Assembly: GCA_964461035.1 (NCBI GenBank)
Contig: CAYWRI010000002.1
Span: 11,129-75,128 of the forward strand
Length of the DNA stretch: 64,000 nucleotides
Reading direction: 5' to 3'
DNA from: an uncultured Methanosarcinales archaeon
GTDB taxonomy: Archaea; Nanobdellota; Nanobdellia; Woesearchaeales; CAYZNE01
Positions 2,228 to 37,490 of the stretch are shown one piece after another. Made by a program: the position numbers and the translations under genes. Each line of letters begins with the position of its first letter. Positions within the stretch are counted from its first letter, which is position 1. The notes under the pieces are model-generated. The model was not told the DNA's origin. It searched no databases and saw nothing but the letters and a program-made list of their open reading frames with translations.

Positions 2228-2286
2228 GGGAGGGAACTATTATATATTCTATAAGCACTCCTAATAAGTAAACACAGGTGATAAAC

Positions 2287-2979: not shown

Positions 2980-2988
2980 AATAATAAA

Positions 2989-3672
2989 ATGAACGCAAAA
3001 ATAGATATGGAAGAAATTTATGCAATTCAAAGAGGCATGCAGAGTAATTTTACTAACACACCTCTTGAAGGAAAAATCGTAAAATATTTGGATAAAGAAT
3101 TTATTGTTTTTCCAACAGTTTTTCATCCTTCTGAAGATAGTAAAGCTTTAGTACAACATTTAATAAGAACTAATAAATTTAAAGATAAAAAAGTATTGGA
3201 TTTATGCACGGGTTCTGGAGTTATTGCGATTTATGCGGCAATTTATGGTGCAGAAAGTGTTGTTGCTTTAGATATTAATCCTGAAGCAATAAGAGCTACA
3301 AAAGAAAATGCACAAAGATATAATGTTTCAAAAATTATAGAAGCTAAAGTTTCTGATATGTATTCAAGTTTAGATCCTTCAGATAGATTTGACGTAATCA
3401 CTATGAATCCACCGTTTACGCCTCATGAAGCAAGTAACTATGTTGAACAAACAATGTGGGATAATAATTTTCAAGTACATCATGATTTTTTTAAAAAATT
3501 AAATAATTATCTTGCATATAATGAGCATGCACATATTACACAATCAAGTTTTGGCGCAGTAAATGAAATGAAAGAAATGGCAGACCAAGCAGGTTTCAAT
3601 TGTTTACTTGTAGGAAAAAACTATGTTGATGAACTCAGAACATTCTATGCTTTTCAATTAAGTAGAAAATAA
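2989..3672 (+). CDS. Class I SAM-dependent methyltransferase, HemK/Mtq2-like (MTS domain).
   Basis: SAM-binding motif I LDLCTGSGVIAI, the NPPF motif (ITMNPPFTP) typical of HemK/PrmC/Mtq2 and N6-MTases, and an N-terminal FPTVFHPSEDSKALV that resembles Mtq2. Confidence 0.7.
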   Translation: MNAKIDMEEIYAIQRGMQSNFTNTPLEGKIVKYLDKEFIVFPTVFHPSEDSKALVQHLIRTNKFKDKKVLDLCTGSGVIAIYAAIYGAESVVALDINPEAIRATKENAQRYNVSKIIEAKVSDMYSSLDPSDRFDVITMNPPFTPHEASNYVEQTMWDNNFQVHHDFFKKLNNYLAYNEHAHITQSSFGAVNEMKEMADQAGFNCLLVGKNYVDELRTFYAFQLSRK

Positions 3673-3723
3673 AATAAATAAAATAAATAAAAAAATTAAA
3701 ATAAATTAATAAAAGAAAAAAAA

Positions 3724-14737: not shown

Positions 14738-14942
14738 GAACAGAGTTGCTGAGAATTAAGTACTGCGTTGCGAACATAGTTCTATAATTCATTTAATTTT
14801 ACTTGGAAATCTTTCATTAAAGAGGAATGTGTCCTGTAATTTGTTGTACATTATACACTCTACAAATAAAAACATATTTAAATAGTAATATCAAAAATAT
14901 ACATATCATTTAAATCATATGTATTTTGAGGGGGAGAGAAGT

Positions 14943-22091: not shown

Positions 22092-25000
22092 TAACTTTAA
22101 AAAATAAAAAAAGAGGTGTAGGGCTTTCAGTTAAGAGCTTAAATTTTTTTATTTCTTTCTTATTATTAGTTATGACTATATCATTACTTACTTTACCCGT
22201 AAACGCAGATGATATTATTAAGTATTCAAATAATGCTTATCCTGAATTAACAATAAGTTTTTCAGAACCTATTTTACTAAGTAATGTAACTGCAAATGTT
22301 CGTTGTGCAAATGAAGATGGAAATTGTTTTCAACTATATGACACTCTTGATTCATTTGCAACAGTTTCAAATGATGGAATATCTGTTCAATATGGTCCAA
22401 ATTCAGACAGTTCTGTAATAGTATATTCATTAAATAGACCTTTGTTAAGTGATACATATTTATTTGAAACAACGGTTTCAGACTTACTTGGAAATGAATT
22501 AATTGATTATGAAATTACTTTAATTGTAGATTCTGAATCAGAAAGTATTGAGCTTATTGAACCAATTCAGGGTTGGGCAAATTCAACTTCATTTGATATT
22601 GTTGTTGAAACTCAATTACCCGGTTCTTGTTGGGCTAATCAAGAAGATTTTAAATTTTCACCAAATTTAGATAACACACATCTTTTTACTGATTCAACTT
22701 CAGGAATGCGACACACAATATCTAATATCGCTATTTGGGGAGATGATGCAATGGTTCGACATTCGCCATATGATCTTTATGTTGTTTGTAATTCTTCTAA
22801 TGCGGCAAACTCAAATAAAATTTATCTAGGTCATTTTATATTGGCGTGGGATGATACTCCGCCTAATTTAAATTATCATCCTGAATTTCAATATACTGTT
22901 CTTGATATTACAGAACCCTATGTGGATATGATTATTGAATCAGATTATATAACTGGAGATCCTCCCGATGAAATTGCTTGTAGATTAAAAAATTTAACAG
23001 AAGACGGAATTTCAATACAAAATTCACCCTATGAATTTTTTCCTAATATTAATTATTCTGACTTATGGAATTACACAAAAACAAATACGAAGCGTTTAGA
23101 TTTTTCATATATTCTTGACGGTGGAACGCCTAATGGTGGAGTGCATGAGCCCCATGAGTATAGATTTGAGGTTTCTTGTAGAAATACTGCTAGACTCAAA
23201 CCAACACCTTTTGAAAGAATATATGATATCACTGTGCAATTTGCTGATACATTTAGAATTGAAAAATTACTCCCTCATGATTATGTTAATGCAAATCCGG
23301 TTTTTATAGAAGTAAAAACTTCTGTTGTAACAGACGCTTGTAATATATCTGCTGAAGGTGCATCCTTAGATGAAATAGAACAAATGGTTCAAATTGTTGA
23401 TGAAAAAACATATGCTATATCTTTAAGTGGCTTAGAAGAGGGAACTCATTCTTACGAAGTAACTTGTTACTCTCACATATATACTAGCTCAGGATTGTTA
23501 AGCTTTGATTTTGTTGTTGATAGAACATCACCTTCACTCTTAGATATAAATTCTCTTGTCAAAACTTGCTCGCTTAATTCTTTTGAATTTGAATTATATG
23601 CAGAAGACAATGTCGGTCTTAATTATTTTAAATATAATTTTACGGGAGTTAATGTAAGTATTCAAAACATCATTAATTCAGAAGATACGGAGGACACTGT
23701 AAATGTAGAATTTGATGATTTAGAGTTAATTGAAAATCAAACTTACACAATAACTGCGTGGGTTTATGATCTTGCTAATAATTCTAAAGGTCCTGTAACA
23801 AAAACAATTACTGCTTCAAAACCTAATGATCTTGTTTGTGATTTATATCCTCCATCAATAACACTTAATGTTATTAATGAGTCTATGGGAGAAGTTACTG
23901 TAAAACTAAATTGTCAAGACTCTGGAAGTGGATGTTCTGATAATTATATTTTAGAAAGATTAGGAAATCTATCACATGCTTGCTCTTATTATAGTGGTCA
24001 CGAAATGCCTTTCTCAGACAATATTATAATTTCCTATGACACAAAAATATGTGCGCAAGCACACGATTTATCAGGTAATAGTGTGAATAAATCTTGGATA
24101 ATTGAAGTTCCAACAAATCTTCCTCAATATTGTCAGAATAATGTTAAAGATGAAGATGAATCAGGGATAGATTGTGGTGGTAGTTGTGTGGGGTGTTCTT
24201 TAGATTCTCCTTGTTTTTCAAGCACTGATTGTGTTTCAGGCATGTGGTGCGATCCTACTTTAAATCTTTGTAAATGGGCATCTTGTGATGATAAAATAAT
24301 GAATGGTCAAGAAACAGATATTGATTGTGGCGGTCCAGATTGTACAACTTGTTCAATTAATAGCTCTTGTTTAACATCTGATGATTGTGATAGTAATTAT
24401 TGTACTGCAGAAGGTATTTGTTCTTTATCATCCTGTTCTGATGGAATCATGAATGGTTTTGAAACTGATGATGATTGTGGCGGTCCAGATTGTACACCCT
24501 GTCAAAACGAAAAGGATTGTGATTTTGACACAGATTGTCAAAGTGGTTGTTGTAATTACGGAACTTGCGATGATTGTTCTAGTTCACCTTCACCTCTACC
24601 ACCTCCCCCTCCAAAAGATATTGTTTCGCTCATATTATTAATAGTTGGAATAGTTTTAATTTTGGCAGGAAGCGCTTATCTTTATTACTTGCATGCTAAT
24701 AAATTAAATTCTTCAAATACGCAAATAGGTTTTTCAGATTCTTTATCAGATTCTCGTATTTCAAAATCTAAACAATTAAAAACTCATTTAACAAAAGAGC
24801 AATTATTATCTTTAACCAATAGAAAAAAGCAAATGCGTAACAAATTTAAATCTAGAAAAACAGATAGATTATCTGAAATAGAAACAACCATGTCAGAATT
24901 TGATGAAAAAACTCTCGGAGTAAAAAAAGAAAAAAAAGACCAAACAACTAAAAAAGTTGAAAAACTTGTTGATAATATGGATTTAAAAAATAAGCAAGAT

Positions 25001-25735
25001 AATAATAAAACAGACGATGATAATAAAAAAATAAAAGAAAAACTTTCTGTTGATTTTCCTGCAAAAGATTTTATTTCGCTTAAAGAATTAGAAGAAAGTT
25101 CTGTAGAATTAATGAATAAAGATAAGAAGTTTAAGGATAAAGTTATGACTGATGTTTTTGCGCAATTAGAAAAATTACACGCAACAAAACCAGAAATAAA
25201 AAAAGCAAAGCAAAAAGATAAATTATCTGTTTATTATGATGGAGTTATTCCTGTTGAAGATGAATCTCCTATAGAAACTTTAGAAAAAACTAATTCCTCT
25301 AAAAAAGATTCTTCAAAGACAACTTCTAAAACAGCTTTAAAAATAACTTCAAAAATATCTAAAAATTCAAACAGTAAAAAATCAAAGTCTACAAATTCTA
25401 TGCCGTCTTCTAAAAAAGACGATGATGTTTTTTTGGCTCTAGAAAAAATTTCAAATTCCTCTTCAAAAACATCTTCTAAAAAAGATATAGAACTTAAATC
25501 TGATTCAATTAATTTTAAAAATAATCTTAACGCAGATACGGATAGTATGATTAACTTATTTAAAACTAATGAGTTAAATATTGATGTGTTTAAAGTAATA
25601 CTGTCCGAACTTTTAAACTCAAAAAAACTAAATAAACAAGATGTTTCAGGAATAATATTTAGACTTCTTGAACAAAAACTAATAAAAGAATCTAAAGCAA
25701 ATAAAATATTAACAGAATTAGGGTTATTAAATTAA
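22088..25735 (+). CDS. Type-I membrane surface protein (1215 aa). Order: signal peptide, Ig-like domains, three tandem Cys-rich modules, poly-Pro stalk, TM helix, and a ~350-aa Lys/Ser-rich cytoplasmic tail.
   Basis: GTG start overlaps the stop of the previous gene (GTGA). Signal peptide ...LLTLPVNA|DD. Ig-like boundary motifs WDDTPPNL, VDRTSPSL, CDLYPPSI. Three modules of the form D-x-D-CGG-x2-C-x2-C...MNG-x-ET. Stalk LPPPPPK, TM IVSLILLIVGIVLILAGSAYLYYL, then a K/S/D low-complexity tail. Confidence 0.8.
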   Translation: MITLKNKKRGVGLSVKSLNFFISFLLLVMTISLLTLPVNADDIIKYSNNAYPELTISFSEPILLSNVTANVRCANEDGNCFQLYDTLDSFATVSNDGISVQYGPNSDSSVIVYSLNRPLLSDTYLFETTVSDLLGNELIDYEITLIVDSESESIELIEPIQGWANSTSFDIVVETQLPGSCWANQEDFKFSPNLDNTHLFTDSTSGMRHTISNIAIWGDDAMVRHSPYDLYVVCNSSNAANSNKIYLGHFILAWDDTPPNLNYHPEFQYTVLDITEPYVDMIIESDYITGDPPDEIACRLKNLTEDGISIQNSPYEFFPNINYSDLWNYTKTNTKRLDFSYILDGGTPNGGVHEPHEYRFEVSCRNTARLKPTPFERIYDITVQFADTFRIEKLLPHDYVNANPVFIEVKTSVVTDACNISAEGASLDEIEQMVQIVDEKTYAISLSGLEEGTHSYEVTCYSHIYTSSGLLSFDFVVDRTSPSLLDINSLVKTCSLNSFEFELYAEDNVGLNYFKYNFTGVNVSIQNIINSEDTEDTVNVEFDDLELIENQTYTITAWVYDLANNSKGPVTKTITASKPNDLVCDLYPPSITLNVINESMGEVTVKLNCQDSGSGCSDNYILERLGNLSHACSYYSGHEMPFSDNIIISYDTKICAQAHDLSGNSVNKSWIIEVPTNLPQYCQNNVKDEDESGIDCGGSCVGCSLDSPCFSSTDCVSGMWCDPTLNLCKWASCDDKIMNGQETDIDCGGPDCTTCSINSSCLTSDDCDSNYCTAEGICSLSSCSDGIMNGFETDDDCGGPDCTPCQNEKDCDFDTDCQSGCCNYGTCDDCSSSPSPLPPPPPKDIVSLILLIVGIVLILAGSAYLYYLHANKLNSSNTQIGFSDSLSDSRISKSKQLKTHLTKEQLLSLTNRKKQMRNKFKSRKTDRLSEIETTMSEFDEKTLGVKKEKKDQTTKKVEKLVDNMDLKNKQDNNKTDDDNKKIKEKLSVDFPAKDFISLKELEESSVELMNKDKKFKDKVMTDVFAQLEKLHATKPEIKKAKQKDKLSVYYDGVIPVEDESPIETLEKTNSSKKDSSKTTSKTALKITSKISKNSNSKKSKSTNSMPSSKKDDDVFLALEKISNSSSKTSSKKDIELKSDSINFKNNLNADTDSMINLFKTNELNIDVFKVILSELLNSKKLNKQDVSGIIFRLLEQKLIKESKANKILTELGLLN
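24165..24580 (+). repeat. Three tandem copies of a Cys-rich module of about 48 aa (about 145 nt) within CDS 22088..25735.
   Basis: IDCGGSCVGCS..., DIDCGGPDCTTCS..., DDDCGGPDCTPCQ.... The stretch 'gattgtggcggtccagattgtaca' is identical in copies 2 and 3. Confidence 0.7.
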
Positions 25736-25771
25736 CTATTAAATTTCAAACAGTGCGTTAAAGGTGATAAT

Positions 25772-26260
25772 GTGAATAAAAAAGCAATAACAAAACAAAT
25801 CTTTACTTTTCTAATGGTTGCGATATTAATAGGACTACTCTTTTTATTTGGCATAATTAGTGCTAAAAACTTATTAACTCAAACTTGCAAAGCACAAAAA
25901 GCGCTATCTCAAAAAGATATTATGGACGCAATATCTGATTATAATAGTAAAGATTCAGCGCATACAGAATCAATAATTCTTTCCTGTGATTATACTGAAA
26001 TATGTTTTTTAGATGCGGAAAGACTTAAAACAAACTCTCCACCAATAACCAACATTCCTTACAAAGTAATGCAAGATGTAGTAACTATTCAAGGAGATTA
26101 TAATATATTTTTCGTAAAAGGAGATGTTGTTGAACCAATTGGATTTTCAAATAAATTAACTGTTGAAGGTGATGGAAGTCTTTGTGTTACTTCAACAGGC
26201 AATAGTTTTAAAATTATTTTTGTGGGTAAGGGAAGAACAACAGCAGTAAGAACAAGTTAA
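25772..26260 (+). CDS. Type IV pilin-like protein (class III signal peptide), 162 aa.
   Basis: SD-like 'aggtga' before the GTG start. N-terminus NKKAITKQIFTFLMVAILIGLLFLFGI is a short basic region followed by an uninterrupted hydrophobic helix. Confidence 0.55.
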   Translation: MNKKAITKQIFTFLMVAILIGLLFLFGIISAKNLLTQTCKAQKALSQKDIMDAISDYNSKDSAHTESIILSCDYTEICFLDAERLKTNSPPITNIPYKVMQDVVTIQGDYNIFFVKGDVVEPIGFSNKLTVEGDGSLCVTSTGNSFKIIFVGKGRTTAVRTS

Positions 26261-26270
26261 TAATTTTAAA

Positions 26271-26720
26271 ATGATATTTTCAAAAAAAGCATTTACAATA
26301 CAATTTAGTTGGATTTTTATTTTAATAGTTGGATTTTTTGTAATGTTTCTAGTAATAAGAATAATAACTTCCCAGACAGATGTATCTAAACAAGAAATAA
26401 ATTTGGATTTATCTAAGAATATAGATTCTATTTTATCAAGTGCAGAACAAAGCACAGACACTTTCAAAATAGTTCATACACCTGAACTCAAATTAACTTA
26501 TTTGTGTTTTGAAGATTACACCGCATATTCTGTTCAGAAAAATATAAATAAAATAGAAAATTCAATAATGTTTTCTTCTTCATCAATATCTGGAAGAAAT
26601 ATTTATACTTGGACAAAAGAGTATAAAATGCCTATGAAAATAACAAATGTTCTCTATGTTACTGACCCGCTTCATAAATTTATTTTTGTTGACGGGTATC
26701 CTGTTATTGATTATTGTTAG
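26271..26720 (+). CDS. Type IV pilin-like protein, 149 aa.
   Basis: N-terminus MIFSKKAFTIQFSWIFILIVGFFVMFLVI. Confidence 0.5.
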   Translation: MIFSKKAFTIQFSWIFILIVGFFVMFLVIRIITSQTDVSKQEINLDLSKNIDSILSSAEQSTDTFKIVHTPELKLTYLCFEDYTAYSVQKNINKIENSIMFSSSSISGRNIYTWTKEYKMPMKITNVLYVTDPLHKFIFVDGYPVIDYC

Positions 26721-26725
26721 ATTTA

Positions 26726-27289
26726 ATGCCTTCAAATATAACTAGGGAAGTTGTTAATAGTATTAATGACATAACTGATAATAATTATAATCAGTATATA
26801 ATAATGACTGCTACTTCGTTATCAGGAACTATTTTAAATGGTTTTTCCCCCATGTTTCTTAGAAAAATAATAGCTTTACAAATAACAACAGTTCCGGGTC
26901 AAGAAAATAAAGGACAAATTACTTTTTACAAATTTGATGATAATGGTCAGTCAGCAGTTGTCGGAGAAAACGAGTATGACTATATTGATGAAACTCTTTT
27001 GTTTGGCGCAATATTTACTGCAGATCCTTATTTGTACAATTGTACTGCAAATAAACTATTTGAAAAATCAAAATCAATATATCAAATATATAATTACACC
27101 GCAACAAAAATGAATCAAGCAACAACAAGAGTGATATGCAAAGATCCTTCAAGAGGGTATCTTTCTGTTATTAGTATATTGGAAGATATGATTACTTCAG
27201 ATTCTTCTAATACGATTTACGAAGATGCAATTCAGCTTCGATCTAGAAATACTTATCTTCAAAGAAGCGATTGTCCTCTTGCATATTAA
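26726..27289 (+). CDS. Hypothetical protein in the pilin operon (187 aa, no N-terminal helix). The track start at 26714 is TTG; the ATG at 26726 is preferred.
   Basis: Sits between pilin-like genes in the same orientation. Confidence 0.4.
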   Translation: MPSNITREVVNSINDITDNNYNQYIIMTATSLSGTILNGFSPMFLRKIIALQITTVPGQENKGQITFYKFDDNGQSAVVGENEYDYIDETLLFGAIFTADPYLYNCTANKLFEKSKSIYQIYNYTATKMNQATTRVICKDPSRGYLSVISILEDMITSDSSNTIYEDAIQLRSRNTYLQRSDCPLAY

Positions 27290-27339
27290 TTGTTAGTTCA
27301 TAATTGTTGTAGATTTAATAAATGAGCTAAAAATAAACA

Positions 27340-27849
27340 ATGACACTAAAAACATTAAATAAAAAAGCGCAACTTCAAATAACTGAAAATGTAGTTATAA
27401 TTATAATCATAATTTTCATATTTATTATTGGAATTGTTTTTTATAATAATGTTAAAAAAATTACGTATGTTGAAACAGTAAATGAATATTCTGACCTTGA
27501 TTTAGTAAAAGCAAGCCAAAAAATAACAAATTTACCCGAATTAAGTTGTTCTTTTAATGAGCAAGTAGAAGTAGGTTGTGTTGATGAATTAAAACTTGAA
27601 GCAGTTATTGCATTAGATTTATTGAATACATCATATTCTTATTATTATTCCATATTTGGAAAATCAAAAGTCATAATAAATACAACTTTTCCAGAACAGG
27701 GCAAAGGTTTTGTTATTTATGATAGTAAATTATCTGGAGACTATAATCAAATTCCTTTAGTTATTCCTATAAAAGTTTACAATCCTATAAACATGACAAC
27801 CAACTTAGGTTATGTTCAAATATTAAAATACACAGAGGTTTTTAATTAA
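27340..27849 (+). CDS. Type IV pilin-like protein, 169 aa.
   Basis: N-terminus MTLKTLNKKA|QLQITENVVIIIIIIFIFIIGIVFY. It has K-K-A|Q with Gln at +1 and Glu at +6, matching the archaeal FlaFind-type pattern. Confidence 0.65.
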   Translation: MTLKTLNKKAQLQITENVVIIIIIIFIFIIGIVFYNNVKKITYVETVNEYSDLDLVKASQKITNLPELSCSFNEQVEVGCVDELKLEAVIALDLLNTSYSYYYSIFGKSKVIINTTFPEQGKGFVIYDSKLSGDYNQIPLVIPIKVYNPINMTTNLGYVQILKYTEVFN

Positions 27850-27851
27850 TA

Positions 27852-28370
27852 ATGGTGTACTCAAAATTTCCTTCAAAAAAGGCACAAGTTGAAATTATGG
27901 GTCTTGTAATAATAGTTATTTTAATTGTAATAATAATATTTGTTGTTCTTGTTTTCATGTTAAATAAAAAACCGAATGAGGTTGTTTCAAAGTATTCTGA
28001 TTCTCAGTATCCCACCGCATTTATTCTTGCACTTTTAGACACAAGTTCTATGTGTCAAGACCATGTTCCAATAAAAAGTTTAATTTATGATTGTGCTGTT
28101 GACAAGAGAATTCATTGTCCAAGTTCAGATACTTCTTCTTGTAAATATTTGAATGAATCTCTTACACAAATATTTGATTCAACATTAAATGCGTGGGGAG
28201 AAAATTATGAATTTAAAATGGATCACGCAGCATTTATTCACTACAATAATTTTACTTTTTCATCTGGTTGTGGTCCTTATTCAACTGTTGAAACTAATCC
28301 CTTTCAAATTATTCCTTTGTGGCCAAGAAGGGATTTTGTCAGAGTAAGCATGAAAATATGTTCTAATTAA
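27852..28370 (+). CDS. Type IV pilin-like protein, 172 aa.
   Basis: N-terminus MVYSKFPSKKA|QVEIMGLVIIVILIVIIIFVVLVF. Confidence 0.65.
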   Translation: MVYSKFPSKKAQVEIMGLVIIVILIVIIIFVVLVFMLNKKPNEVVSKYSDSQYPTAFILALLDTSSMCQDHVPIKSLIYDCAVDKRIHCPSSDTSSCKYLNESLTQIFDSTLNAWGENYEFKMDHAAFIHYNNFTFSSGCGPYSTVETNPFQIIPLWPRRDFVRVSMKICSN

Positions 28371-28415: not shown

Positions 28416-29105
28416 TTAATTTTCAGTAACGTGAATATTAAATTCTTTTGTAAATAAAGGCATTTTAGAATCCATTTTTTCATAGGCTTCAAGAATTATT
28501 GTACAATAGCCTGATTTTATTTTATTCATGTCAAATTTATTAAGATCACTTATTGGTTTTGGTAACTCAAGTTTGAATATGAGTGGTCCGTCAGGATTAA
28601 AACAAGGAGTTCCATCATTTAATTTAATTTCAAATTGTATGACGGAATAATTAAAATATCTGTGTGGTGCATATAACTCAAAATGTATTACTTCAGGTTC
28701 ATCTATTTCAATTAGATTTTCTTTTTCTATTTTAGGAAATAAATATTGCTTATCTGCAATACTATTAAAATAATAATTAAATTCAATTTTATCTGTAGGA
28801 TTGATTTCAGGTATACAACAAACTAAATCTTTTGTTGCTTCTTTTGTGTCTTCATTTGTTAAATCTAAACAAGCTCCTCTAAATGTAGAAACTCTTTCAC
28901 TTGAAAGACACATATCTTTACTTGTAACACAAATACCTGGTTCTCCAGGAACTATAAAACATTCTCCATGTTTTTCTAAAGCTGGATTTATTATATCAAC
29001 CACATTAGGTATTATGTTTAGAGAGATTAATAAAACTATAATAACTATTATCAGGGTGGCTATCATCCACATTACATTAGAATCCGCTTTTTTAGTATTT
29101 TTCAT
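28416..29105 (-). CDS. Type IV pilin-like protein with a Cys-rich knot ending in the 'VCCIP' motif, 229 aa.
   Basis: N-terminus MKNTKKA|DSNVMWMIATLIIVIIVLLI, then C-x-C-x-C...LVCCIPE. Confidence 0.6.
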   Translation of the reverse strand: MKNTKKADSNVMWMIATLIIVIIVLLISLNIIPNVVDIINPALEKHGECFIVPGEPGICVTSKDMCLSSERVSTFRGACLDLTNEDTKEATKDLVCCIPEINPTDKIEFNYYFNSIADKQYLFPKIEKENLIEIDEPEVIHFELYAPHRYFNYSVIQFEIKLNDGTPCFNPDGPLIFKLELPKPISDLNKFDMNKIKSGYCTIILEAYEKMDSKMPLFTKEFNIHVTEN

Positions 29106-29172
29106 TTTTTGATTTGTTCAAATTGTTTTATGTTTGTTAAATACGTATAAATTATTATTTTTAATACAATTT

Positions 29173-29439
29173 TTATTCAGGTTTTTCTCCACCACAGCAA
29201 ACATAATTAGGATTTGTTTCTTTTTTACAATTTATATCGCTACCTGCAAGATGAATAGTTCCTTCTGGGCAAGTTGTTCCTGCCTGACAAAATGAGGCTG
29301 CATAAGCTCCGCAACCTTTTTCTAGTTTTACGTTGTGAAATATATCTGTATAATAATAAATACCCAATCCTAAGCCTATAACCGCTAAAATAATCATAAT
29401 CACTTGAAATGACATTTGTGCTTTTTTATGTTTATTCAT
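29173..29439 (-). CDS. Small Cys-rich pilin-like protein (88 aa from the internal Met). The track ORF extends to 29532 and overlaps the upstream gene.
   Basis: MNKHKKA|QMSFQVIMIILAVIGLGLGIYYY, then GCGAYAASFCQAGTTCPEG...NYVCCGGEKPE. Confidence 0.55.
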   Translation of the reverse strand: MNKHKKAQMSFQVIMIILAVIGLGLGIYYYTDIFHNVKLEKGCGAYAASFCQAGTTCPEGTIHLAGSDINCKKETNPNYVCCGGEKPE

Positions 29440-31270
29440 TTTCTTGTGCCTCACATTCTTCTTCTGAATTATTCCATTCGCAAATAGAACATTGATCACA
29501 TTGATACTCATTACTAAGTCTATCACAATCATCTTTGTTTTGAGGACAAGTGCTACAGTAGTTAGTTAAAAAGCCCTTTTCTTCTTTATCTTCTCGTTCC
29601 CAATAACAATTTGCACCGGGTAAACAAGGATTTTGAATACAAGCATTTTTTCTTGCATAAATTTTACAATTCAAATTAGTTTGAGTTGCTTGAGCACAGG
29701 GCACACAATCATAATTTTCATCGCTATCACCACTACGTTTATCAGAATAACATTGATATTGCGGATTAGTACTACTACAAAAAGAATCAGCACTGCTATA
29801 AGGTGGACTATTAATAAAATAATTATTATAAATCTCGGCTTTAGTAGGATCTACAAAATTATATCCCAAATGTTCAGAAGTTATTTGACTATGAACTGAA
29901 TTACATATTTGTTCATACATAGTGTTGCCTCCCGCTCTCGATATGGCATCGCATTCAGCTATATCGCAAGTATTTGATGGACTGCTTTTTTCAGGATTCA
30001 CATAGTATATTTTTGAACAAGATAAGTGAGATTCTACAAAAATTGATTTTGTTGCAGGTGCAAAACCCATAATGCATATTTTTGATTCTGTTATTGGCGA
30101 ACTATAAACACCATCATTTTGAACTTGACCATTTTCTGCAAAAATAAATGAATCATAATATGATTCATATTGTTCAGGATTTGTTAGAGAAATTAAATTA
30201 TTAGGACATTTTTCTGATGACTTTTTTAGACTTATTCCAACAAATTCACAAGGATAATCTCTTGAATCATCTGTTTTTCTTGCTTTACAATATATGTCGC
30301 AGACTGTTCCCATTCCATTAACACCTAAAACGGGTCTTGACTCAATATTAAAAGAAATAGAATCAAAAGTTTCAGGAGTTGTTATTTCGTCTTCTAAGAT
30401 TTCAGGAACATCAACAAAAGTTCTTATGTACTGAGACTTATCATCACTATTACCATTCCATCCTTTCATTAAGAGCATGAACATTGCGTCTTTATCTCTT
30501 CTTTCTGGTTGTGCATAATTACTACATGATGCAAATGGTAATTTGGATTCCCAAACTTCTTTATTAAATGCTATGTCATTGGTTCTTTTAAAATAAACAG
30601 GGCCACTAATACTGCATTCACCTTTTGCATTTTTTGTTCCTGTAGCAATTTTCTTTGATTCATCAGCATAACTTGGATTATTTGATTCATCCATCCAATT
30701 AATCCTTAATTCACAATGTTCAACATCGGTCATGTTCCCATAAAATATGACTTTACCATCAGGATTTAGTCCATTTATTTCTACACCTACATTATCTCTT
30801 ACTTGATGACAGTTATGAATAACATTATTCCATTTACTAATTGGTCTTATTCCTGTAGCAGTTGCATCATTTCCCACGTTTTTATAAAATAATTGATCAG
30901 ATGATTTTGAATCTGGATCACCAGGTAGTATTTGTGAGCCTGGTGTTGTTCCATTATTATCTGATTTAGAACCACCCAAAATATTCAAATAACAGTTTTC
31001 TCCTACAACAATTTTTTCATTTTTTTCATTAAAACAATCAAGAAAACTTATTTTTATTCCCATTGCAGGCCTAACATCTGAACAAGACATTAAGGGATTA
31101 TAAGATTCACATTTAAACATTGATAAACCAAGACCTAAAGCAGAATTTATAAAATAAAGTGACACTCCAAGCACTACAAGCACTACAACCGCAGAAAGAA
31201 CTAATCCGAGTCCTGAATTCTCGCCTTTAGTATTTATTCGATGTTTCATTTTGTTATTTATCTCACACAT
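29432..31270 (-). CDS. Large pilin-like or secreted protein (612 aa) with an N-terminal hydrophobic helix and a Cys-rich C-terminus.
   Basis: N-terminus MKHRINTKGENSGLGLVLSAVVVLVVLGVSLYF. The C-terminal ~110 aa holds more than 20 Cys (CVPCAQATQTNLNCKIY...CSTCPQNKDDCD...). Confidence 0.65.
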   Translation of the reverse strand: MCEINNKMKHRINTKGENSGLGLVLSAVVVLVVLGVSLYFINSALGLGLSMFKCESYNPLMSCSDVRPAMGIKISFLDCFNEKNEKIVVGENCYLNILGGSKSDNNGTTPGSQILPGDPDSKSSDQLFYKNVGNDATATGIRPISKWNNVIHNCHQVRDNVGVEINGLNPDGKVIFYGNMTDVEHCELRINWMDESNNPSYADESKKIATGTKNAKGECSISGPVYFKRTNDIAFNKEVWESKLPFASCSNYAQPERRDKDAMFMLLMKGWNGNSDDKSQYIRTFVDVPEILEDEITTPETFDSISFNIESRPVLGVNGMGTVCDIYCKARKTDDSRDYPCEFVGISLKKSSEKCPNNLISLTNPEQYESYYDSFIFAENGQVQNDGVYSSPITESKICIMGFAPATKSIFVESHLSCSKIYYVNPEKSSPSNTCDIAECDAISRAGGNTMYEQICNSVHSQITSEHLGYNFVDPTKAEIYNNYFINSPPYSSADSFCSSTNPQYQCYSDKRSGDSDENYDCVPCAQATQTNLNCKIYARKNACIQNPCLPGANCYWEREDKEEKGFLTNYCSTCPQNKDDCDRLSNEYQCDQCSICEWNNSEEECEAQENE

Positions 31271-31326
31271 ATCTATTTACTTTTATAAATTCTAAAAATT
31301 ATAAATAAAAATTAAATATTATTTTT

Positions 31327-31584
31327 TTAGCTAGTACTTAGGATACAGCATTCCTGATTTCCAGGGCAAACCAATTCATTACCTTCATTATCATAAGAAT
31401 AATCTGCAAAAGCGCCATCACAAGATTCTCTGCACATTCCCATCTTAGAACTGCAACTTATTCCACTATCAATAGGCTTAATCATACTAACAACGAAGTA
31501 GATTATTACTCCTAAAACTAATAACCCAAGAACTGCCACTATTACTGTATGTAAACTTAAGCTCTGTGCTTTTTTATTCAACAT
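31327..31584 (-). CDS. Small Cys-rich pilin-like protein, 85 aa.
   Basis: MLNKKA|QSLSLHTVIVAVLGLLVLGVIIYFVV, then a Cys-rich tail ending ECCILSTS. Confidence 0.65.
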   Translation of the reverse strand: MLNKKAQSLSLHTVIVAVLGLLVLGVIIYFVVSMIKPIDSGISCSSKMGMCRESCDGAFADYSYDNEGNELVCPGNQECCILSTS

Positions 31585-31607
31585 TTTTTATTACCTCATT
31601 AGTTTTT

Positions 31608-31850
31608 TTAGATTGGTATGCAACATACAGGATCTTCTTCGGGGCATCCTCTCTGTCCACTTTCTAAATAGCCATCACCACACCAGCCAGAATCATCACA
31701 TCTTGCTCCAGATATTCCAGTACAACTTGTCTGATCAAAAAGTTCTCCACCTGTATTCAAAACAAGGGTTGCAAGAATTACTAGGACAAGTAATGATACT
31801 GCTGCAATAATGATTGTATTCATACTTAATCCTTGTGCTTTTTTATTCAT
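31608..31850 (-). CDS. Small Cys-rich pilin-like protein, 80 aa (tandem paralogue of 31327..31584).
   Basis: MNKKA|QGLSMNTIIIAAVSLLVLVILATLVL, then a Cys-rich tail ending PVCCIPI. Confidence 0.65.
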   Translation of the reverse strand: MNKKAQGLSMNTIIIAAVSLLVLVILATLVLNTGGELFDQTSCTGISGARCDDSGWCGDGYLESGQRGCPEEDPVCCIPI

Positions 31851-31960
31851 TTTTTCACCTCATTAATCTTTTTATGTTTAATGTAACTTAACCCATTCTT
31901 TATTTTTATTACCTTTATATATAAATTTATTGATAACTTTTATGTTTTTTTTGATATTTT

Positions 31961-32671
31961 TTACACTAAAGTCCATTCATATTCTCCATTAACTTTTTTA
32001 CATTGATATTCTATTCCATCACTTTTAATTACATTTTTTTGAAGATTTTCTTTTGTTTCTTTGCTAAATTCTTCTGTGCATTTAAACCAATAATAGTACT
32101 TTCCAGCATCTATTTTTGCACATAATAATCCTTTTGGTTTTGAATTTAATAATTGAATTATCGTGTTATCTGCAGTTGCGGTTATTGTTGTTATTGAAGT
32201 AAGATCCATTTCACTTAATATTCCATTGAAGTTTCCTAGTTTTCCATTAGGTTCAAATAAAAATGGTTCTTCAAATGTATCTGTGTCCTTAGTATATCCC
32301 TTAATAAAACAACCAAATCTATCCATAAAGTTAATTGGATATTGTTGTTCAAAAACATCTTTTGAAATATGTTCAAATTCTATGAATTTATCATAATCAA
32401 AAGTTTCAAATTTATTATCAACAACAAGTATAAATTCATAAGCAATCTTTTCAAACTGAATGTATTCTGCTGGAAATTTGTCACCTTCCACTTCTGCATC
32501 CATATAACTTTTGAATATTTCTTTTATAGAAATTATCATAGAATCTAATCCTTTTGTTATTGTTTTTGGAGAAAAATCTGATAATAATAAACTTGCAAGT
32601 ATAACGACGAATATTATGATTGTAACTACCATAGAATAATTTGCTTTTTTCTGTGAAATTATTTTCATCAT
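31961..32671 (-). CDS. Type IV pilin-like protein, 236 aa.
   Basis: MMKIISQKKANYSMVVTIIIFVVILASLLLS. Confidence 0.55.
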   Translation of the reverse strand: MMKIISQKKANYSMVVTIIIFVVILASLLLSDFSPKTITKGLDSMIISIKEIFKSYMDAEVEGDKFPAEYIQFEKIAYEFILVVDNKFETFDYDKFIEFEHISKDVFEQQYPINFMDRFGCFIKGYTKDTDTFEEPFLFEPNGKLGNFNGILSEMDLTSITTITATADNTIIQLLNSKPKGLLCAKIDAGKYYYWFKCTEEFSKETKENLQKNVIKSDGIEYQCKKVNGEYEWTLV

Positions 32672-32710
32672 TTTATTGCTCTATACTACTCTTTCATTCA
32701 TATACCTTAT

Positions 32711-32851
32711 TCATATTCGGATTAAGCCTCTTATAACATCTATAAATCCCTTGCTTGCATCTTGCTGTTGTGACATACCAACTATAATAACTATTAGGAA
32801 TAGAAGTGATAGGACTATCCAGAATACAATTGAATACATTCCTTTTTTCAT
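32711..32851 (-). CDS. Mini-pilin-like peptide (46 aa from the internal Met MKKG...). The track ORF 32711..32956 is longer.
   Basis: MKKG|MYSIVFWIVLSLLFLIVIIVGMSQQQDASKGFIDVIRGLIRI. It consists only of the signal region plus the hydrophobic helix. Confidence 0.4.
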   Translation of the reverse strand: MKKGMYSIVFWIVLSLLFLIVIIVGMSQQQDASKGFIDVIRGLIRI

Positions 32852-32936
32852 ATTATTACCTCTTTTTTTGATATTTATAATCTTTTTGATTAAATCATGC
32901 AGTTTGACGAACTTACACTTGAAAGTCAAAATTTTT

Positions 32937-34001
32937 TTATTTTTCAAATTCCACACTCATTTCACAATTCATCGATGATATCATCCATGTTTCATATGGT
33001 ACAACATACATTGCTGAGATTATTATTTTTTTTCCATTAGAACTTATATGATTTATTTCATAAAAAACAATTCCGTAGTATGTGTATTTATCTTGTTTTT
33101 TATAATCTTGAAGTGTTCCAGTTTCATAATACTCTTTGAGGTTTGCTTCAAGAACCGCAAGATGTTCCTTAATCTTTTGATCCTTAGCTTCTGTATTAGC
33201 AATTTCACCCATTCTCGTAGTTTGACTGAGCGCAAGTATATATGATTTTGAACCTTCACTTTGAGTTTCTAAAGGAATTTCGGTAACTAAGTGGGCATAT
33301 CCTAGATAACAGTTTTCAACCCAGTTTTTATATTCTGGATAGTCATCTTTGAATGAATCATGATGAAATCCCGTAATTGCAAAAAAATTAGAATAACTAC
33401 TGTAAATATTAACTACCTGATTAAAATAATGATCATCATTTCTTTTAAGATATTCTTCAATAGTTATAGTATTATCTGAACTTGTAGGAAACAATTCTTT
33501 GATATTAGTATAGTATAATATGTTCGACCAATTATTCATTTGAAAATTTTCATTAAATCTAACAACATATCTTACATGACAAAATGCATCTTTAGTAATA
33601 TCAGGATAAAACATTTTCTCTCCTTCACCAAATTCATTCCATGTTTTGACAGTTAATTTTATTAGCTCTTTTTGAGCTTCTTCTTTAGTTTCAGCCTTAG
33701 ATTTTATCATTTTTGTATTACATTCTATTGGAGGAACATTAGTTTTATCTACGTCAAACAAATAAGCTAGCAAACCAATATTTTCATCAATTTTTTTCTC
33801 TGTTCTTAATAACGCTTCAACAAAATTTTTATGAGTTTCTATTGAAGCAATACAATTAGTTTCTTCAATTTCGTCTTTAAACTTAGAACCTATTAAGCTA
33901 TTTACCAAAATCGACATTATTATGATACTTATGCAAATAATTATTATCACATTTACTATATCTTTCAAATCTGTTTCTGCTTTCTTTCTTTTAATTATCA
34001 T
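32937..34001 (-). CDS. Type IV pilin-like protein with a large C-terminal domain, 354 aa.
   Basis: MIIKRKKA|ETDLKDIVNVIIIICISIIIMSILV. Confidence 0.55.
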   Translation of the reverse strand: MIIKRKKAETDLKDIVNVIIIICISIIIMSILVNSLIGSKFKDEIEETNCIASIETHKNFVEALLRTEKKIDENIGLLAYLFDVDKTNVPPIECNTKMIKSKAETKEEAQKELIKLTVKTWNEFGEGEKMFYPDITKDAFCHVRYVVRFNENFQMNNWSNILYYTNIKELFPTSSDNTITIEEYLKRNDDHYFNQVVNIYSSYSNFFAITGFHHDSFKDDYPEYKNWVENCYLGYAHLVTEIPLETQSEGSKSYILALSQTTRMGEIANTEAKDQKIKEHLAVLEANLKEYYETGTLQDYKKQDKYTYYGIVFYEINHISSNGKKIIISAMYVVPYETWMISSMNCEMSVEFEK

Positions 34002-34010
34002 TTTTAAACA

Positions 34011-35123
34011 TTAACCCATTGGAAGGTAAAGTCCCTGAAATTTTGCGATTTCAGTTTCAGGACGTAGTATTTGTAAATTATACGGGATGGCAACCAGCAA
34101 ATTCATGTTTATTATGTTACCCGCTAAGGTGCTTGTTTCAGCAACTAAATATTCCACATTTATATTATATTGAATGGTAGTATCTATTTTATTATCTCTA
34201 TTTTCTCCTATTACCATTTGTTTTAGATTATTTTTAAAATTAAATGCGGCCACATTTTGTTCTGAAATAGTTTTAATTCTTTCCATATATCTTTCAACCA
34301 TAAGATTATAATTATCTAAGAATACCGAGTCATCAATTTTTTTATCTGGAGCAAAGGGTGCAAGATATTTTTTTCTAAAATAGTCTGCATAAAACATATC
34401 ATCTGTATCTTTTGTTTTTAGAATACTTGCAAAATTATATAATTCCGTTAATTCAGTATTTAAAAATACTTTTGAATCAAAGTTAAAAGATACACAGGGT
34501 TTTGCCATAATCATGTTGCTTGGTTCAATACCTGATAGGTTTACTAGTTTTTCAGTTCCTGCACCCATAATTGATTTACCGTTTATTATTTCTTTAATAA
34601 CGTCTACACTATAAACATCTGCAGGTGAACTGATGGCGGTTTGTTTCATGAGTTTCATTGTTATTTCATTAACATCTCCTTTAAAGTTTACAACCGCTCT
34701 TGATATTAACATACTATCAACATAATAAATATTATCGCATAGTTTCATTTCCTGTAATATTATAGAGTATACTGCGTATTCTCTTTCTTTCTCTTCAGGA
34801 AAATAAATATGCTCATTTTTTAGTTTTTGAATTTCTTTTGAATACGAATAAGTAAATATTTTTTCTTTCTTATCACTTAAAAGATCATATTTAACTGCCT
34901 CTTTTTCTCCAAACTTAAGAATATATTCATGACAAGTACTAAAACCTACAGGAACTCCTTTTGCTGACAGTGCGATTTGTGTTTTACAAGCTTGATAGTT
35001 CGTATTGTTTGTAATCAGAGTTATTATCATGATTGATAAACCAATTAAAATAAGAGCTCCAATGAAAAGCAATATTATCTTTACTGAGCTGTCAATCATT
35101 GCTTTTTTTGTTTTTAATTTCAT
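34011..35123 (-). CDS. Type IV pilin-like protein with a large C-terminal domain, 370 aa.
   Basis: MKLKTKKA|MIDSSVKIILLFIGALILIGLSIMIITLI. Confidence 0.55.
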   Translation of the reverse strand: MKLKTKKAMIDSSVKIILLFIGALILIGLSIMIITLITNNTNYQACKTQIALSAKGVPVGFSTCHEYILKFGEKEAVKYDLLSDKKEKIFTYSYSKEIQKLKNEHIYFPEEKEREYAVYSIILQEMKLCDNIYYVDSMLISRAVVNFKGDVNEITMKLMKQTAISSPADVYSVDVIKEIINGKSIMGAGTEKLVNLSGIEPSNMIMAKPCVSFNFDSKVFLNTELTELYNFASILKTKDTDDMFYADYFRKKYLAPFAPDKKIDDSVFLDNYNLMVERYMERIKTISEQNVAAFNFKNNLKQMVIGENRDNKIDTTIQYNINVEYLVAETSTLAGNIINMNLLVAIPYNLQILRPETEIAKFQGLYLPMG

Positions 35124-35375: not shown

Positions 35376-35954
35376 ATGAAATTCGAGTTTTCAAAAAAAG
35401 AATTAATGGATTTGTTTATCACTGCACTCATGCTTGCACTTGCATTTTCTTTTCTATTTAAAGGAATTTCTTTAGATGTAATCTTAATATTTCCTTTAAT
35501 GTTACTTGTAGTGTTATTTAGTTTTATTATTCATGAAATTGCTCATAAATATTTTGCTCAAAAATATCATTATATTGCAGAATTCAGAGCAAACTTTAAA
35601 TTTCTTATAGTCACAGTTTTATTAAGCTTAATAGGTTACATTGTTGCTGCTCCAGGAGCAGTTTACACTATAGGACCTGACAACAAAAGAAAACAGGGAA
35701 TTATCGCATTAGCAGGACCTGCTTCAAATATTTTTTTAGCAGCATTATTTTTAATATTAACTATTTTAACACCAATATCTTATCTAAATTCTGTTTTTTC
35801 ACACATTTATTTTATTAATGCTATTTTAGGATTGTTTAATATGCTTCCAGCTCCAGGATTTGACGGTCACAAAGTTTGGAAGTGGAATAAACTTATTTTC
35901 TTTTCTTCAGGGTTATTGGCTCTAGCCCTTTGGAGTGTTTTGTTATTATCTTAG
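35376..35954 (+). CDS. Site-2-protease-like zinc metalloprotease (M50 family), polytopic membrane protein.
   Basis: HEIAH sits inside a TM helix, and the downstream motif FNMLPAPGFDGHK matches the M50 NxxPxxxLDG signature. Confidence 0.65.
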   Translation: MKFEFSKKELMDLFITALMLALAFSFLFKGISLDVILIFPLMLLVVLFSFIIHEIAHKYFAQKYHYIAEFRANFKFLIVTVLLSLIGYIVAAPGAVYTIGPDNKRKQGIIALAGPASNIFLAALFLILTILTPISYLNSVFSHIYFINAILGLFNMLPAPGFDGHKVWKWNKLIFFSSGLLALALWSVLLLS

Positions 35955-36069
35955 ACATATTATTCTAAGCAGTCTTGCACAATAGAAAACTATATAAAAC
36001 ATTTAAACTCCAGTATATTAAAAAGGGTGAGAAGATTAAAAAGATAGAAATATGTCGAGAGTGTGAAAT

Positions 36070-36699
36070 ATGGTCAAATTAGGTTTTTTATTAAAAAAAT
36101 TTTTCAGAAGTATATTTAAAGGTAGAAGAGATATAAAACTGGGTTTATATGGCCCGCCAAATGGTGGAAAAACAACTTTAGCTAACACAATTTGTAAAGA
36201 TTGGCTTGGTGAAGAGATGGGTTCTGTTTCTAATGTTGCTCATGAAACAAGAGAAGTTCAAATAAAAGAAGAAGTCACCATAAAAAATAAAGCTGGAAAA
36301 GAATTAAAATTTAATCTGGTTGATACTCCAGGAATTGCTACAAAAATAGATTATGAAGATTTTCTGAAATCTGGAATGAAAGAAGCTAAAGCAAAAGAAA
36401 GGGCAAAAGAGGCAACCAAAGGAGTTATTGATTCAATAAAATGGCTTGATGATATGGATGCAGTAATAGTTGTTTTAGATAGTACAATAGATCCATATAG
36501 TCAGGTAAACATAACTATAATGGGAAATTTGCAGGCAAGAGATATTCCTGTTCTTGTTGTAGGAAATAAAGTAGACTTGAAAAAAGCAAATCTTAAGAAA
36601 CTTCAAGCAGCATTCCCTCAATATGATGTTATAGGAATTAGTGCTAAATATGGAAAAAATATAGAAGAACTATATGATTCAATTTTTAAATTAGTTTAA
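36070..36699 (+). CDS. Small P-loop GTPase (Ras/Arf-like superfamily).
   Basis: G1 GPPNGGKTT, G3 DTPG, G4 NKVD. Confidence 0.7.
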   Translation: MVKLGFLLKKFFRSIFKGRRDIKLGLYGPPNGGKTTLANTICKDWLGEEMGSVSNVAHETREVQIKEEVTIKNKAGKELKFNLVDTPGIATKIDYEDFLKSGMKEAKAKERAKEATKGVIDSIKWLDDMDAVIVVLDSTIDPYSQVNITIMGNLQARDIPVLVVGNKVDLKKANLKKLQAAFPQYDVIGISAKYGKNIEELYDSIFKLV

Positions 36700-36715
36700 A
36701 AGAGCGTGAGAAAAG

Positions 36716-37102
36716 ATGTTAACATTTCAATTTGTACCATATGAGGATATAAGAGGACTTGATTCAGATCAGAGAATAAAGCGACTTTTAAGCATGGTTA
36801 AATCAGAAAAAATAATTCTGTTAGCAGGTCATCTTAAAAGTCAAGAAGAGGCAGAACTAATAAAAAGAACAATGGAAGCAATATCTAAAACCTTTAAAGG
36901 AATAGAGATAGGTTCTATTTCTCCAAGACATGCTAACAAGTTTAAAGAATTTTTGCTCAGAACTTTTTTCGGTGAAGAAACAGGATTTACAATTATAGGT
37001 CCTGCATCTGTAATAAAAGAAATAAAACAAGATCCAGGTAAAATTCAATTATTTATGAATGAAGCTGAAGGAAAAAAATCTATTAATAAGAGAAAAAGAT
37101 AA
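36716..37102 (+). CDS. Small conserved protein, DUF2073-like, that partners the GTPase.
   Basis: 128 aa, directly downstream of the GTPase and upstream of the Zn-ribbon gene. The family assignment is from memory of this conserved archaeal trio and was not verified. Confidence 0.4.
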   Translation: MLTFQFVPYEDIRGLDSDQRIKRLLSMVKSEKIILLAGHLKSQEEAELIKRTMEAISKTFKGIEIGSISPRHANKFKEFLLRTFFGEETGFTIIGPASVIKEIKQDPGKIQLFMNEAEGKKSINKRKR

Positions 37103-37103
37103 A

Positions 37104-37490
37104 ATGCCACATCAATGTGTTAAATGCGGAGAAATATATGATTCTGGTACAGATGTTATTCTAAAAGGATGTAGAAAATGTGGTGGAAAGATGTTCTTTT
37201 TTATTAAAAAAGATGCATTAGCTAAAAGAAAAAATATTGTTAAAAATCTTTCTGAAGAAGAAAAAATTCAAATAGAAAAAGATGTTTATGACATTATGGG
37301 TGAAGATATAGATAAGGAAAAGCCTATAATACTTGATATTGAATCAATAAACATTCTTAAACCAGGAAAATATGAACTCGACCTTGTTAATCTCTTCAAG
37401 AAAAAACAACCACTGATTTATAAACTCGAAGATGGCAAATATATTATTGATTTAATTGAAACTTTTAATAAATTTCTAGGTAAAAAGTGA
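37104..37490 (+). CDS. Zn-ribbon protein (DUF2072-like).
   Basis: MPHQCVKCGE...GCRKCGG gives a CxxC...CxxC ribbon. The start is adjusted to the ATG immediately after the upstream stop. Confidence 0.5.
   Translation: MPHQCVKCGEIYDSGTDVILKGCRKCGGKMFFFIKKDALAKRKNIVKNLSEEEKIQIEKDVYDIMGEDIDKEKPIILDIESINILKPGKYELDLVNLFKKKQPLIYKLEDGKYIIDLIETFNKFLGKK

Follow-up and report, generated by a model that had tools for sequence, protein, structure and literature searches.

Putative minimal pilins with a six-cysteine, beta-defensin-like head in Woesearchaeota-type archaea

A tight minus-strand operon in a 64,000-nucleotide stretch of archaeal DNA (contig CAYWRI010000002.1 of assembly GCA_964461035.1, positions 11,129 to 75,128 of the forward strand; hereafter the window) contains four genes for proteins of 80, 85, 88 and 229 residues, here called A, B, C and D. 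In each open reading frame (ORF), a class-III (type IV pilin-like) leader with K-K-A before Gln or Asp is followed by a hydrophobic stretch of about 24-30 residues and then by a module of six cysteines closed by a Cys-Cys pair. Here ‘head’ refers to this C-terminal module of about 40 residues. We conclude that these genes probably encode minimal pilin-like subunits of a type-4 filament in a DPANN archaeon of the Woesearchaeota/Nanoarchaeota group, with a head of a new kind that has profile-level similarity to proteins of the beta-defensin fold. Archaeal pilin-like proteins are a known kind; what is new here is the head, together with the minimal architecture. In the literature searched, neither this family nor an archaeal trans-defensin-like domain is described, and nothing specific on Woesearchaeota pilins was found.

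Six-cysteine framework and membership

The operon runs from 35123 to 28416 on the minus strand, and its products have, in order, 370, 354, 46, 236, 80, 85, 612 (605 in the public call), 88 and 229 residues. The four ORFs of interest exist with the translations quoted in a preliminary description of the window. Gene A (31608..31850, minus strand) encodes the canonical family member, which is the public protein P0001. Its leader MNKKA before Gln is followed by a hydrophobic helix at residues ~10-40 and by a head (DNA ~31611-31724) with C43, C51, C57, C69, C76 and C77, and the protein ends in CCIPI. Gene B (31327..31584, minus strand), which is P0110, has the leader MLNKKA before Gln, the helix and a six-Cys head (DNA ~31330-31455). 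Gene C (29173..29439, minus strand) has the leader MNKHKKA before Gln, the helix and a six-Cys head (DNA ~29176-29313); its mechanical ORF reaches 29532, and the start at MNKHKKAQ fits the leader motif and is that of the public gene call P0171. Gene D (28416..29105, minus strand) has the leader MKNTKKA before Asp, the helix, a divergent six-Cys module (DNA ~28815-28961) and a C-terminal extension of 132 residues (28419-28814) without a recognized fold.

The spacings between the cysteines are 7, 5, 11, 6, 0 in the 80-residue protein, 6, 3, 17, 5, 0 in the 85-residue protein, 7, 5, 13, 9, 0 in the 88-residue protein and 9, 6, 12, 16, 0 in the 229-residue protein. When the pattern C-x4-10-C-x2-9-C-x7-30-C-x3-18-CC, with no further Cys inside, was run on the 742 stop-to-stop ORFs of the window, exactly these four matched, against a mean of 0.22 and a maximum of 2 in 200 residue shuffles. 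The shared framework is thus real and non-random. The preliminary description had called the genes adjacent, with 6-8 cysteines ending in a CC-[IG]-P motif. They do belong to the same operon, but they are not strictly adjacent, since a long gene, here called Big (29432..31270, minus strand), separates B from C; the start of C overlaps the stop of Big by 8 nucleotides. The vicinal Cys-Cys ending stands as well, but the module always has six cysteines, and the two extra ones of the 229-residue protein sit in its C-terminal extension. The proposed ending fits only the 80-residue (CCIPI) and 229-residue (CCIPE) proteins. In the family, the tail after Cys-Cys is mostly 3-9 residues long and hydrophobic, with the consensus CC-[IVL]-P-[LIVF], and in gene A it forms the very C-terminus.

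Membership was examined with hidden Markov models (HMMs) built from database homologues without the 80-, 88- and 229-residue proteins of the window; P0110 was included. The head-only HMM ranked the 80-, 85-, 88- and 229-residue proteins first to fourth among the 742 ORFs, at 42.9, 28.8, 12.8 and 9.8 bits. Gene B also scored 68 bits with the full-length HMM, although neither of its scores is fully independent, P0110 being in the training set. Compared by hhalign with a profile of 138 heads, the head of gene C reached a probability of 83-86% (P from about 6e-6 to 1e-5), and every one of its six cysteines was aligned; by its sequence it is a clear member.

For gene D, a homologue search of a set of 5.8 billion proteins returned only itself. 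On the other hand, homologues with the same architecture and operon position were found in two related genome loci, L008 (248 residues, E 2.5e-11) and L007 (241 residues). L008 is also the locus with the best matches to the 612- and 229-residue proteins of the window, and its order mirrors that of the window: A of 87 residues, B of 100, Big of 600 with an intact helix and module, C of 105 and D of 248.

The Big gene encodes 612 residues as an ORF and 605 in the public call, which starts at 31249. In its product, a class-III-like leader and helix precede a degenerate module (4 Cys, without Cys-Cys), after which comes a long Cys-rich region with 33 Cys. By position, this protein is the orthologue of proteins of 460-690 residues that carry an intact helix and six-Cys module in other genomes (L008_7333, L017_10451, L016_10486, L003_11425, L036_4877 and L060_664), and in the window its module has decayed to four cysteines without the Cys-Cys pair.

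A and B are tandem paralogues, as the preliminary description had it, and tandem arrays of head genes recur in 42 of 56 related genome loci. A strict orthology of A-type and B-type genes across loci found no support: of 37 loci, 35 have an A-like gene in first place, but only 12 have a B-like gene in second place.

A large family with a conserved helix and a hypervariable head

The 80-residue protein has 31 relatives of 77-108 residues in the 5.8-billion-protein set, and a profile of 30 full-length members matched 3,913 cluster representatives (50% identity) at E ≤ 1e-3 and 1,206 at E ≤ 1e-10. Among the 150 matches listed, 146 have 78-101 residues and the other four have 117-130, and all 150 align from N-terminal helix positions through the head. 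Exactly six cysteines occur in 163 of 169 retrieved members. Proteins and genomic loci together gave 298 distinct head sequences, and 291 of these have all six Cys columns, so the spacing proposed from four genes is conserved on alignment. The modal framework is C-x6-C-x3-6-C-x11-C-x5-6-CC, with Gly-Gly before the second cysteine (C2) in 107 of 159.

Mean pairwise identity is 63% over the N-terminal 33 residues, whereas it is 19% at non-Cys positions of the head. A conserved helix with a hypervariable head is the pattern expected if the helix is an assembly interface and the head an exposed surface. The heads are acidic, with a median net charge of -4; 91% are negative and 2% positive.

No Pfam or NCBIfam model matches the family, and the sources name its members only ‘hypothetical protein’. 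Scans of the four proteins and their neighbors with the same two libraries gave only noise matches to transmembrane helices. When the head-only profile was searched against the 5.8-billion-protein index, the 41 candidates were all full-length family-type proteins of 80-108 residues, most of them already known, so that little can be learned from this search about the module in proteins other than pilin-like ones. The head can be repeated: a 165-residue protein (L006 10553-11047) has three tandem copies, and P0143 (120 residues, 12 Cys) has two. Internal copies also occur at residues ~210-285 of same-leader proteins of 360-430 residues (L030 10759, L037 10767, L040 10429).

A genome survey with one genome per GTDB species returned 57 loci. 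By title they are Woesearchaeota, Nanoarchaeota, Nanobdellota or unclassified ‘archaeon’ metagenome-assembled genomes (MAGs), plus several ‘uncultured Methanosarcinales’. The last title, given to third-party assemblies (L006-L009, L014, L019, L024, L027-L029, L037, L039, L044 and L057), is doubtful because those MAGs carry the same Woesearchaeota-type operon.

Similarity of the head to beta-defensin-fold proteins

The preliminary description had taken the head for an uncharacterized knot-like domain. It is uncharacterized in that no Pfam or NCBIfam model covers it, but the knot is not an unknown one, as it carries a beta-defensin (trans-defensin) signature. The six-Cys framework and its G-G-x-C motif correspond to those of beta-defensins, and the following tests support this. 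A pattern for that framework, C-x4-8-C-x3-5-C-x9-13-C-x4-7-CC, fits the 80-residue protein (7, 5, 11, 6, 0) and the family modes (6 / 3-6 / 11 / 5-6 / 0), while the 85-, 88- and 229-residue proteins exceed the usual beta-defensin range in loop 3 or loop 4.

When the 138-head profile was compared with all PDB sequences, 24 matches were obtained at E ≤ 10, and 23 of them were proteins of the beta-defensin fold with all six cysteines aligned. The top match was the C-domain of the tick carboxypeptidase inhibitor (E 9e-6, 29 bits); platypus DLP-1, human beta-defensin 1 (hBD-1), gallinacin-11, bovine BNBD-12 and big defensins were among the others. Aligned by hhalign, the tick inhibitor domain reached 93% (P 2.5e-7), DLP-1 95% (P 6.5e-8) and hBD-1 30%. 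Shuffles that preserve the Cys positions equaled the observed score in 0 of 60 cases for the tick inhibitor, 0 of 60 for DLP-1 and 1 of 60 for hBD-1. Because such shuffles score far lower, the similarity goes beyond Cys spacing. As controls, an alpha-defensin and a knottin did not align with the head profile, and the knottin framework was rejected on this ground.

Pfam scans of the 138 heads taken singly matched Defensin_beta in 16 cases (best E 5e-5), Inhibitor_I68 in 13 and Defensin_beta_2 in 9, followed by Toxin_12, Defensin_3 and Defensin_big; these are weak matches, given here without comparison to the Pfam curated cut-offs. The proteins of the window themselves matched no defensin model in Pfam, PF00711 included. 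The family does not qualify as beta-defensins proper, that is, as cationic, Sec-secreted animal host-defense peptides that match PF00711 at threshold.

Structure prediction with AlphaFold2 gave, for full-length gene A, a helix at residues 10-40 followed by a three-stranded sheet, in keeping with the pilin-type N-terminus and compact Cys-rich head of the preliminary description; the word ‘pilin’ in it draws on leader and gene context. In the head-only model (pLDDT 76, pTM 0.52), C2 lies in strand 1 and C5-C6 in strand 3. A Foldseek search of the PDB with the head returned mostly defensin-type mini-proteins (SCRiP1, alpha-defensins and sea-anemone toxins) with TM scores of 0.65-0.71 relative to the target, none of them significant (E ≥ 0.9). 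Non-significant Foldseek E-values are common for 40-residue domains. The same search with the full-length model was uninformative beyond the same defensins.

Disulfide pairing distinguishes the two defensin types: beta-defensins have C1-C5, C2-C4 and C3-C6, and alpha-defensins have C3-C5 (PMC7203481). Three true four-Cys variants were found (P0092, P0124 and L038_9998, the last at L038 9998-10252), and in all of them exactly two cysteines are missing: C3 is lost, and Tyr takes the place of C6, giving C-Y-[VI]-P. Loss of C3 and C6 together implies a C3-C6 disulfide, a pairing of the beta-defensins that alpha-defensins do not have. Of the pairings C1-C5, C2-C4 and C3-C6, this co-loss would support, indirectly, C3-C6 alone. 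The alpha-defensin framework was rejected because its hhalign control failed and the co-loss contradicts a C3-C5 pairing.

One could also conceive that the six cysteines bind a metal (Zn or Fe-S) in a small membrane protein instead of forming disulfides. The cysteines are invariant while other positions vary, and an anoxic habitat, assumed here for these organisms as DPANN archaea, would make metal binding plausible. However, the framework, the GG-x-C motif and the non-Cys similarity specifically match disulfide-rich extracellular proteins of the beta-defensin fold, and C3 is lost with C6, that is, as a pair. Moreover, the predicted topology puts the head outside the cell, and neighboring surface proteins are also very Cys-rich. 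We regard metal binding as very improbable.

The likeness to the tick protein raises another explanation, in which the heads would be released or displayed effectors of the beta-defensin fold, either an antimicrobial or host-directed peptide or an inhibitor of metallocarboxypeptidases. The tick carboxypeptidase inhibitor plugs its enzyme with the short hydrophobic tail that forms its C-terminus beyond the last Cys, and the heads likewise end in a short hydrophobic tail after Cys-Cys, CC-[IVL]-P-[LIVF]. The tick inhibitor is also the best PDB sequence match, the heads are hypervariable as effectors and toxins often are, and a gene for an M50 intramembrane protease flanks the cluster in the window and in L001. 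These points are offset by several others. Acidic heads are unlike membrane-active cationic defensins, and the hydrophobic helix would remain attached after class-III cleavage. The M50 adjacency is absent from L003, L016, L017 and L053, no target protease is evident, and the parallel between the tails is conjectural. An effector role of this kind thus seems improbable to us, if somewhat less so than metal binding.

The M50 gene belongs to a plus-strand group at 35376-37490, with Peptidase_M50 and a small GTPase by Pfam, whose next two genes (36716-37490) occupy the position of OapB/OapC in L001/L002. The M50/GTPase group borders the pilin-like cluster in L001/L002 as it does in the window, but not in L003. 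The proximity of an M50 intramembrane protease to many single-pass proteins with the N-terminus inside may or may not be meaningful.

Leader and gene context

The leader and hydrophobic stretch, MNKKA followed by QGLSMNTIIIAAVSLLVLVILATLVL in gene A, have equivalents in all four genes and in about 15 neighbors. K3, K4 and Q6 are invariant across 30 aligned members. Archaeal pilins of the EppA type are cleaved between [K/R]-[G/A] and Gln. A Sec signal peptide was rejected, as the hydrophobic stretch has ~24 residues and the conserved motif precedes rather than follows it.

In the window, about 15 genes at 25.7-35.1 kb share the K-K-[A/G] leader and helix. In related Woesearchaeota/Nanoarchaeota MAGs, about 20 same-leader genes form one collinear operon, so that the pilin-like genes are clustered there as well. 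It starts with a giant Cys-rich protein, followed by four or five proteins of 160-370 residues that are homologues of the plus-strand genes of the window at 25772-28370. Three to four proteins of 80-330 residues come next, two of them homologous to the 370- and 354-residue products of the window, and then two to four tandem six-Cys mini-proteins. The end is made up of the Big protein, with the helix and module first, another small six-Cys protein, and more Cys-rich and pilin-like proteins.

Upstream of gene A in the window, the same operon (31961..35123, minus strand) encodes three larger proteins with class-III leaders (370, 354 and 236 residues) and a head-less mini pilin-like protein of 46 residues. 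Homologues of the 370-residue product were found in 5 related loci and of the 354-residue product in 12, at the same relative position where gene order was inspected; the 236-residue product has no homologue among the related loci. The 46-residue gene (32711-32851, minus strand) begins MKKGMYSIVFWIVLSLLFLIVIIVG, and genes of similar size occupy the same relative position in L001 (46 residues), L003 (43 residues) and L059.

Five further genes with class-III leaders (25772..28370, plus strand; 162, 149, 191, 169 and 172 residues) converge on the minus-strand block. Their homologues, found in 21-36 related loci, lie upstream of the six-Cys genes and collinear with them. In the window, the two halves of the operon converge at 28370/28416 (plus strand 14919-28370; minus strand 28416-35123), whereas in L016, L017 and L053 they lie on one strand. 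The window genome therefore carries an inversion.

Pilin subunits are what we read from these features taken together: the leader motif, the near-invariant helix, the small and hypervariable exposed domain, and the long operon of genes with the same leader. For DPANN genomes, ‘dark matter’ islands with predicted pilins are already on record in general terms (PMC6393860).

The following results weigh against this reading. No pilin or class-III-signal model in Pfam or NCBIfam matched the window proteins or 30 family members at E ≤ 1 to 10, and the sole pilin-related match was a non-significant, N-terminal one to a bacterial PilA chain (9laa, E 0.6). No prepilin peptidase, assembly ATPase or platform protein was seen among the scanned ORFs of the window (about 40 of the 53 with at least 100 residues), and the corresponding genes were not found in the ±10 kb annotated around L001 and L003. 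A crude Walker-A plus GEIR screen for ATPases of the PilB/FlaI type gave none in the window ORFs or the 57 related loci (976 kb). The models of the head are of moderate confidence only, with pLDDT 63-87 per block. Finally, the gene D type, aligned with its two homologues, reached only 39% (P 3e-4) against the 138 heads. Given this weak similarity, the membership of gene D rests mostly on its architecture, with the module directly after the helix, on the six-Cys framework and on synteny.

Another explanation is that the proteins are surface knobs anchored in the membrane that never polymerize. The N-terminus would then be a signal-anchor or a pseudopilin-like stub, and the head would be displayed, for example as part of the envelope or as a contact site. 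The lack of assembly machinery near the genes and of any pilin model matching the N-terminus fits this explanation, and the hydrophobic segment is long enough for a membrane span. On the other hand, the K-K-[A/G]-Q leader is nearly invariant, and a simple anchor would not usually show an identity of 63% in the helix versus 19% in the head. The same leader is found in about 15-20 co-oriented genes, and in archaea the genes for pilins are often located apart from the assembly machinery (10.64898/2026.04.22.720090, subsystems 4E/4F). We consider nonpolymerizing knobs unlikely, with a better chance than effectors.

In the pilin explanation, which we favor, a class-III signal (prepilin) peptidase would remove the short basic leader that ends in K-K-[A/G], cutting just before Gln. 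The conserved hydrophobic helix of ~30 residues would anchor the protein in the membrane and then pack into the core of the filament. The C-terminal module of ~40 residues would be the whole globular head, a beta-defensin-like three-stranded sheet with three disulfides that is acidic, hypervariable and exposed. The products of A and B would be the likely major subunits, while those of C, D and Big, in which the module directly follows the helix or once did so, whether or not further domains are present, would be minor or tip subunits. All of them are encoded in the one conserved operon of about 20 pilin-like genes, and the filament would most plausibly mediate contact with surfaces or host cells.

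Gene A is preceded (31851-31960, minus strand) by a GAGGTGA Shine-Dalgarno sequence, 6 nucleotides before ATG, and by a TATA-like element, TTTATATATA, about 70 nucleotides upstream. Beyond the stop of gene B, between B and Big (31250-31326, minus strand), there are several oligo-T tracts. A strong ribosome-binding site of its own for A and oligo-T tracts after B fit a separate, high expression of A and B as major subunits, with partial termination before the Big gene.

Other features of the window

The G+C content of the window is low, about 28%, and Rfam and tRNA scans of it gave no match. Among the housekeeping functions encoded in it are class I and II aminoacyl-tRNA synthetases, a P-type ATPase, a MoxR ATPase, a TrmB regulator and adenylosuccinate lyase.

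Two giant Cys-rich proteins of surface type head the plus-strand half of the operon, one of 2390 residues with 97 Cys (14919-22091) and one of 1215 residues with 40 Cys (22088-25735), and giant proteins are likewise placed in L016, L017 and L053. Another one, of 1094 residues with 46 Cys and a class-III-like leader, is encoded at 8363-11647 on the minus strand. No Pfam match was obtained for the 1215- and 1094-residue proteins.

Among the plus-strand class-III-leader genes, the 149-residue (26271-26720) and 191-residue (26714-27289) ORFs are in different frames and together correspond to one gene for 322-372 residues in L016, L017, L053, L058 and others. In the window genome the pair is either a split gene, the result of a frameshift or an artifact of assembly.

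Discussion

The results name a very large unannotated family, of at least 1,200-3,900 clusters at 50% identity, and give it a structure that can be tested. The family appears to be a signature of Woesearchaeota-type DPANN archaea, and the conserved operon of ~20 genes offers candidate parts of an undescribed surface appendage of DPANN archaea. If our explanation is true, no pilin head with a defined fold would be smaller than this one, and the protein would be the first pilin with a defensin-like disulfide module as its head.

A bolder version, which we put forward only tentatively as possible rather than probable, is that the head truly has the beta-defensin-type (trans-defensin) fold, its disulfides being 1-5/2-4/3-6. 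It would be the first outside animals, and it would make up the whole globular part of a type-4-filament subunit, in thousands of variants. DPANN episymbionts would then display a polymer of hypervariable defensin-like knobs that engage host cells by adhesion, protease inhibition or perturbation of the envelope. The resemblance to animal proteins of the beta-defensin fold may reflect common descent or convergence. Trans-defensins have been stated to have arisen exclusively in animals (PMC7203481). The same framework, Gly motif and significant profile similarity in archaea either reopen the question of their origin or represent a striking convergence; if the fold is true, the scaffold would be far older than animals or would have been reinvented down to non-Cys motifs.

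Among known systems, archaeal type IV pilins and other class-III proteins, such as the EppA-processed Epd pilins of Methanococcus maripaludis, share with this family the basic leader with [K/R]-[G/A] before Gln and the hydrophobic helix that follows. Archaeal pilins, including those of the DPANN ‘dark matter’ islands (PMC6393860), are also similar in their clusters of same-leader genes and in combining a conserved helix with a variable exposed domain. They differ in the head, which here is a mini-domain of ~40 residues with three disulfides and not an Ig-like or alpha/beta-roll pilin domain; here, too, there are no matches to pilin models in Pfam or NCBIfam and no machinery genes nearby. Bacterial minimal pilins (Flp/Tad, Geobacter PilA) are, like this family, very short and mostly helix. 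However, they are without a disulfide-rich head and belong to bacterial systems with recognizable machinery and Pfam models.

The best-scoring solved relative of the head is the C-domain of the tick carboxypeptidase inhibitor (Inhibitor_I68; 2k2z, 1zlh), with which it has in common C-x-G-x-G-G-x-C ... G-Q-x-CC-V and a short hydrophobic tail. The inhibitor is a soluble, two-domain, secreted animal protein, unlike the family here, for which no carboxypeptidase target or inhibition is indicated.

Beta-defensins and big defensins (PF00711, PF13841, PF14862) share the framework C-x6-C-x3-6-C-x9-13-C-x5-6-CC and the G-G-x-C motif at C2. All six cysteines are aligned in the profile matches, and a three-stranded antiparallel sheet, here predicted, and a C3-C6 link, here implied, would be common to both as well. 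On the other hand, defensins are animal and cationic, whereas the family here is archaeal and acidic, with loops 3 and 4 often longer, and it has a class-III leader and a retained helix in place of a Sec signal and propeptide. Big defensins, too, combine a beta-defensin domain with a hydrophobic region at the N-terminus (PMC7203481).

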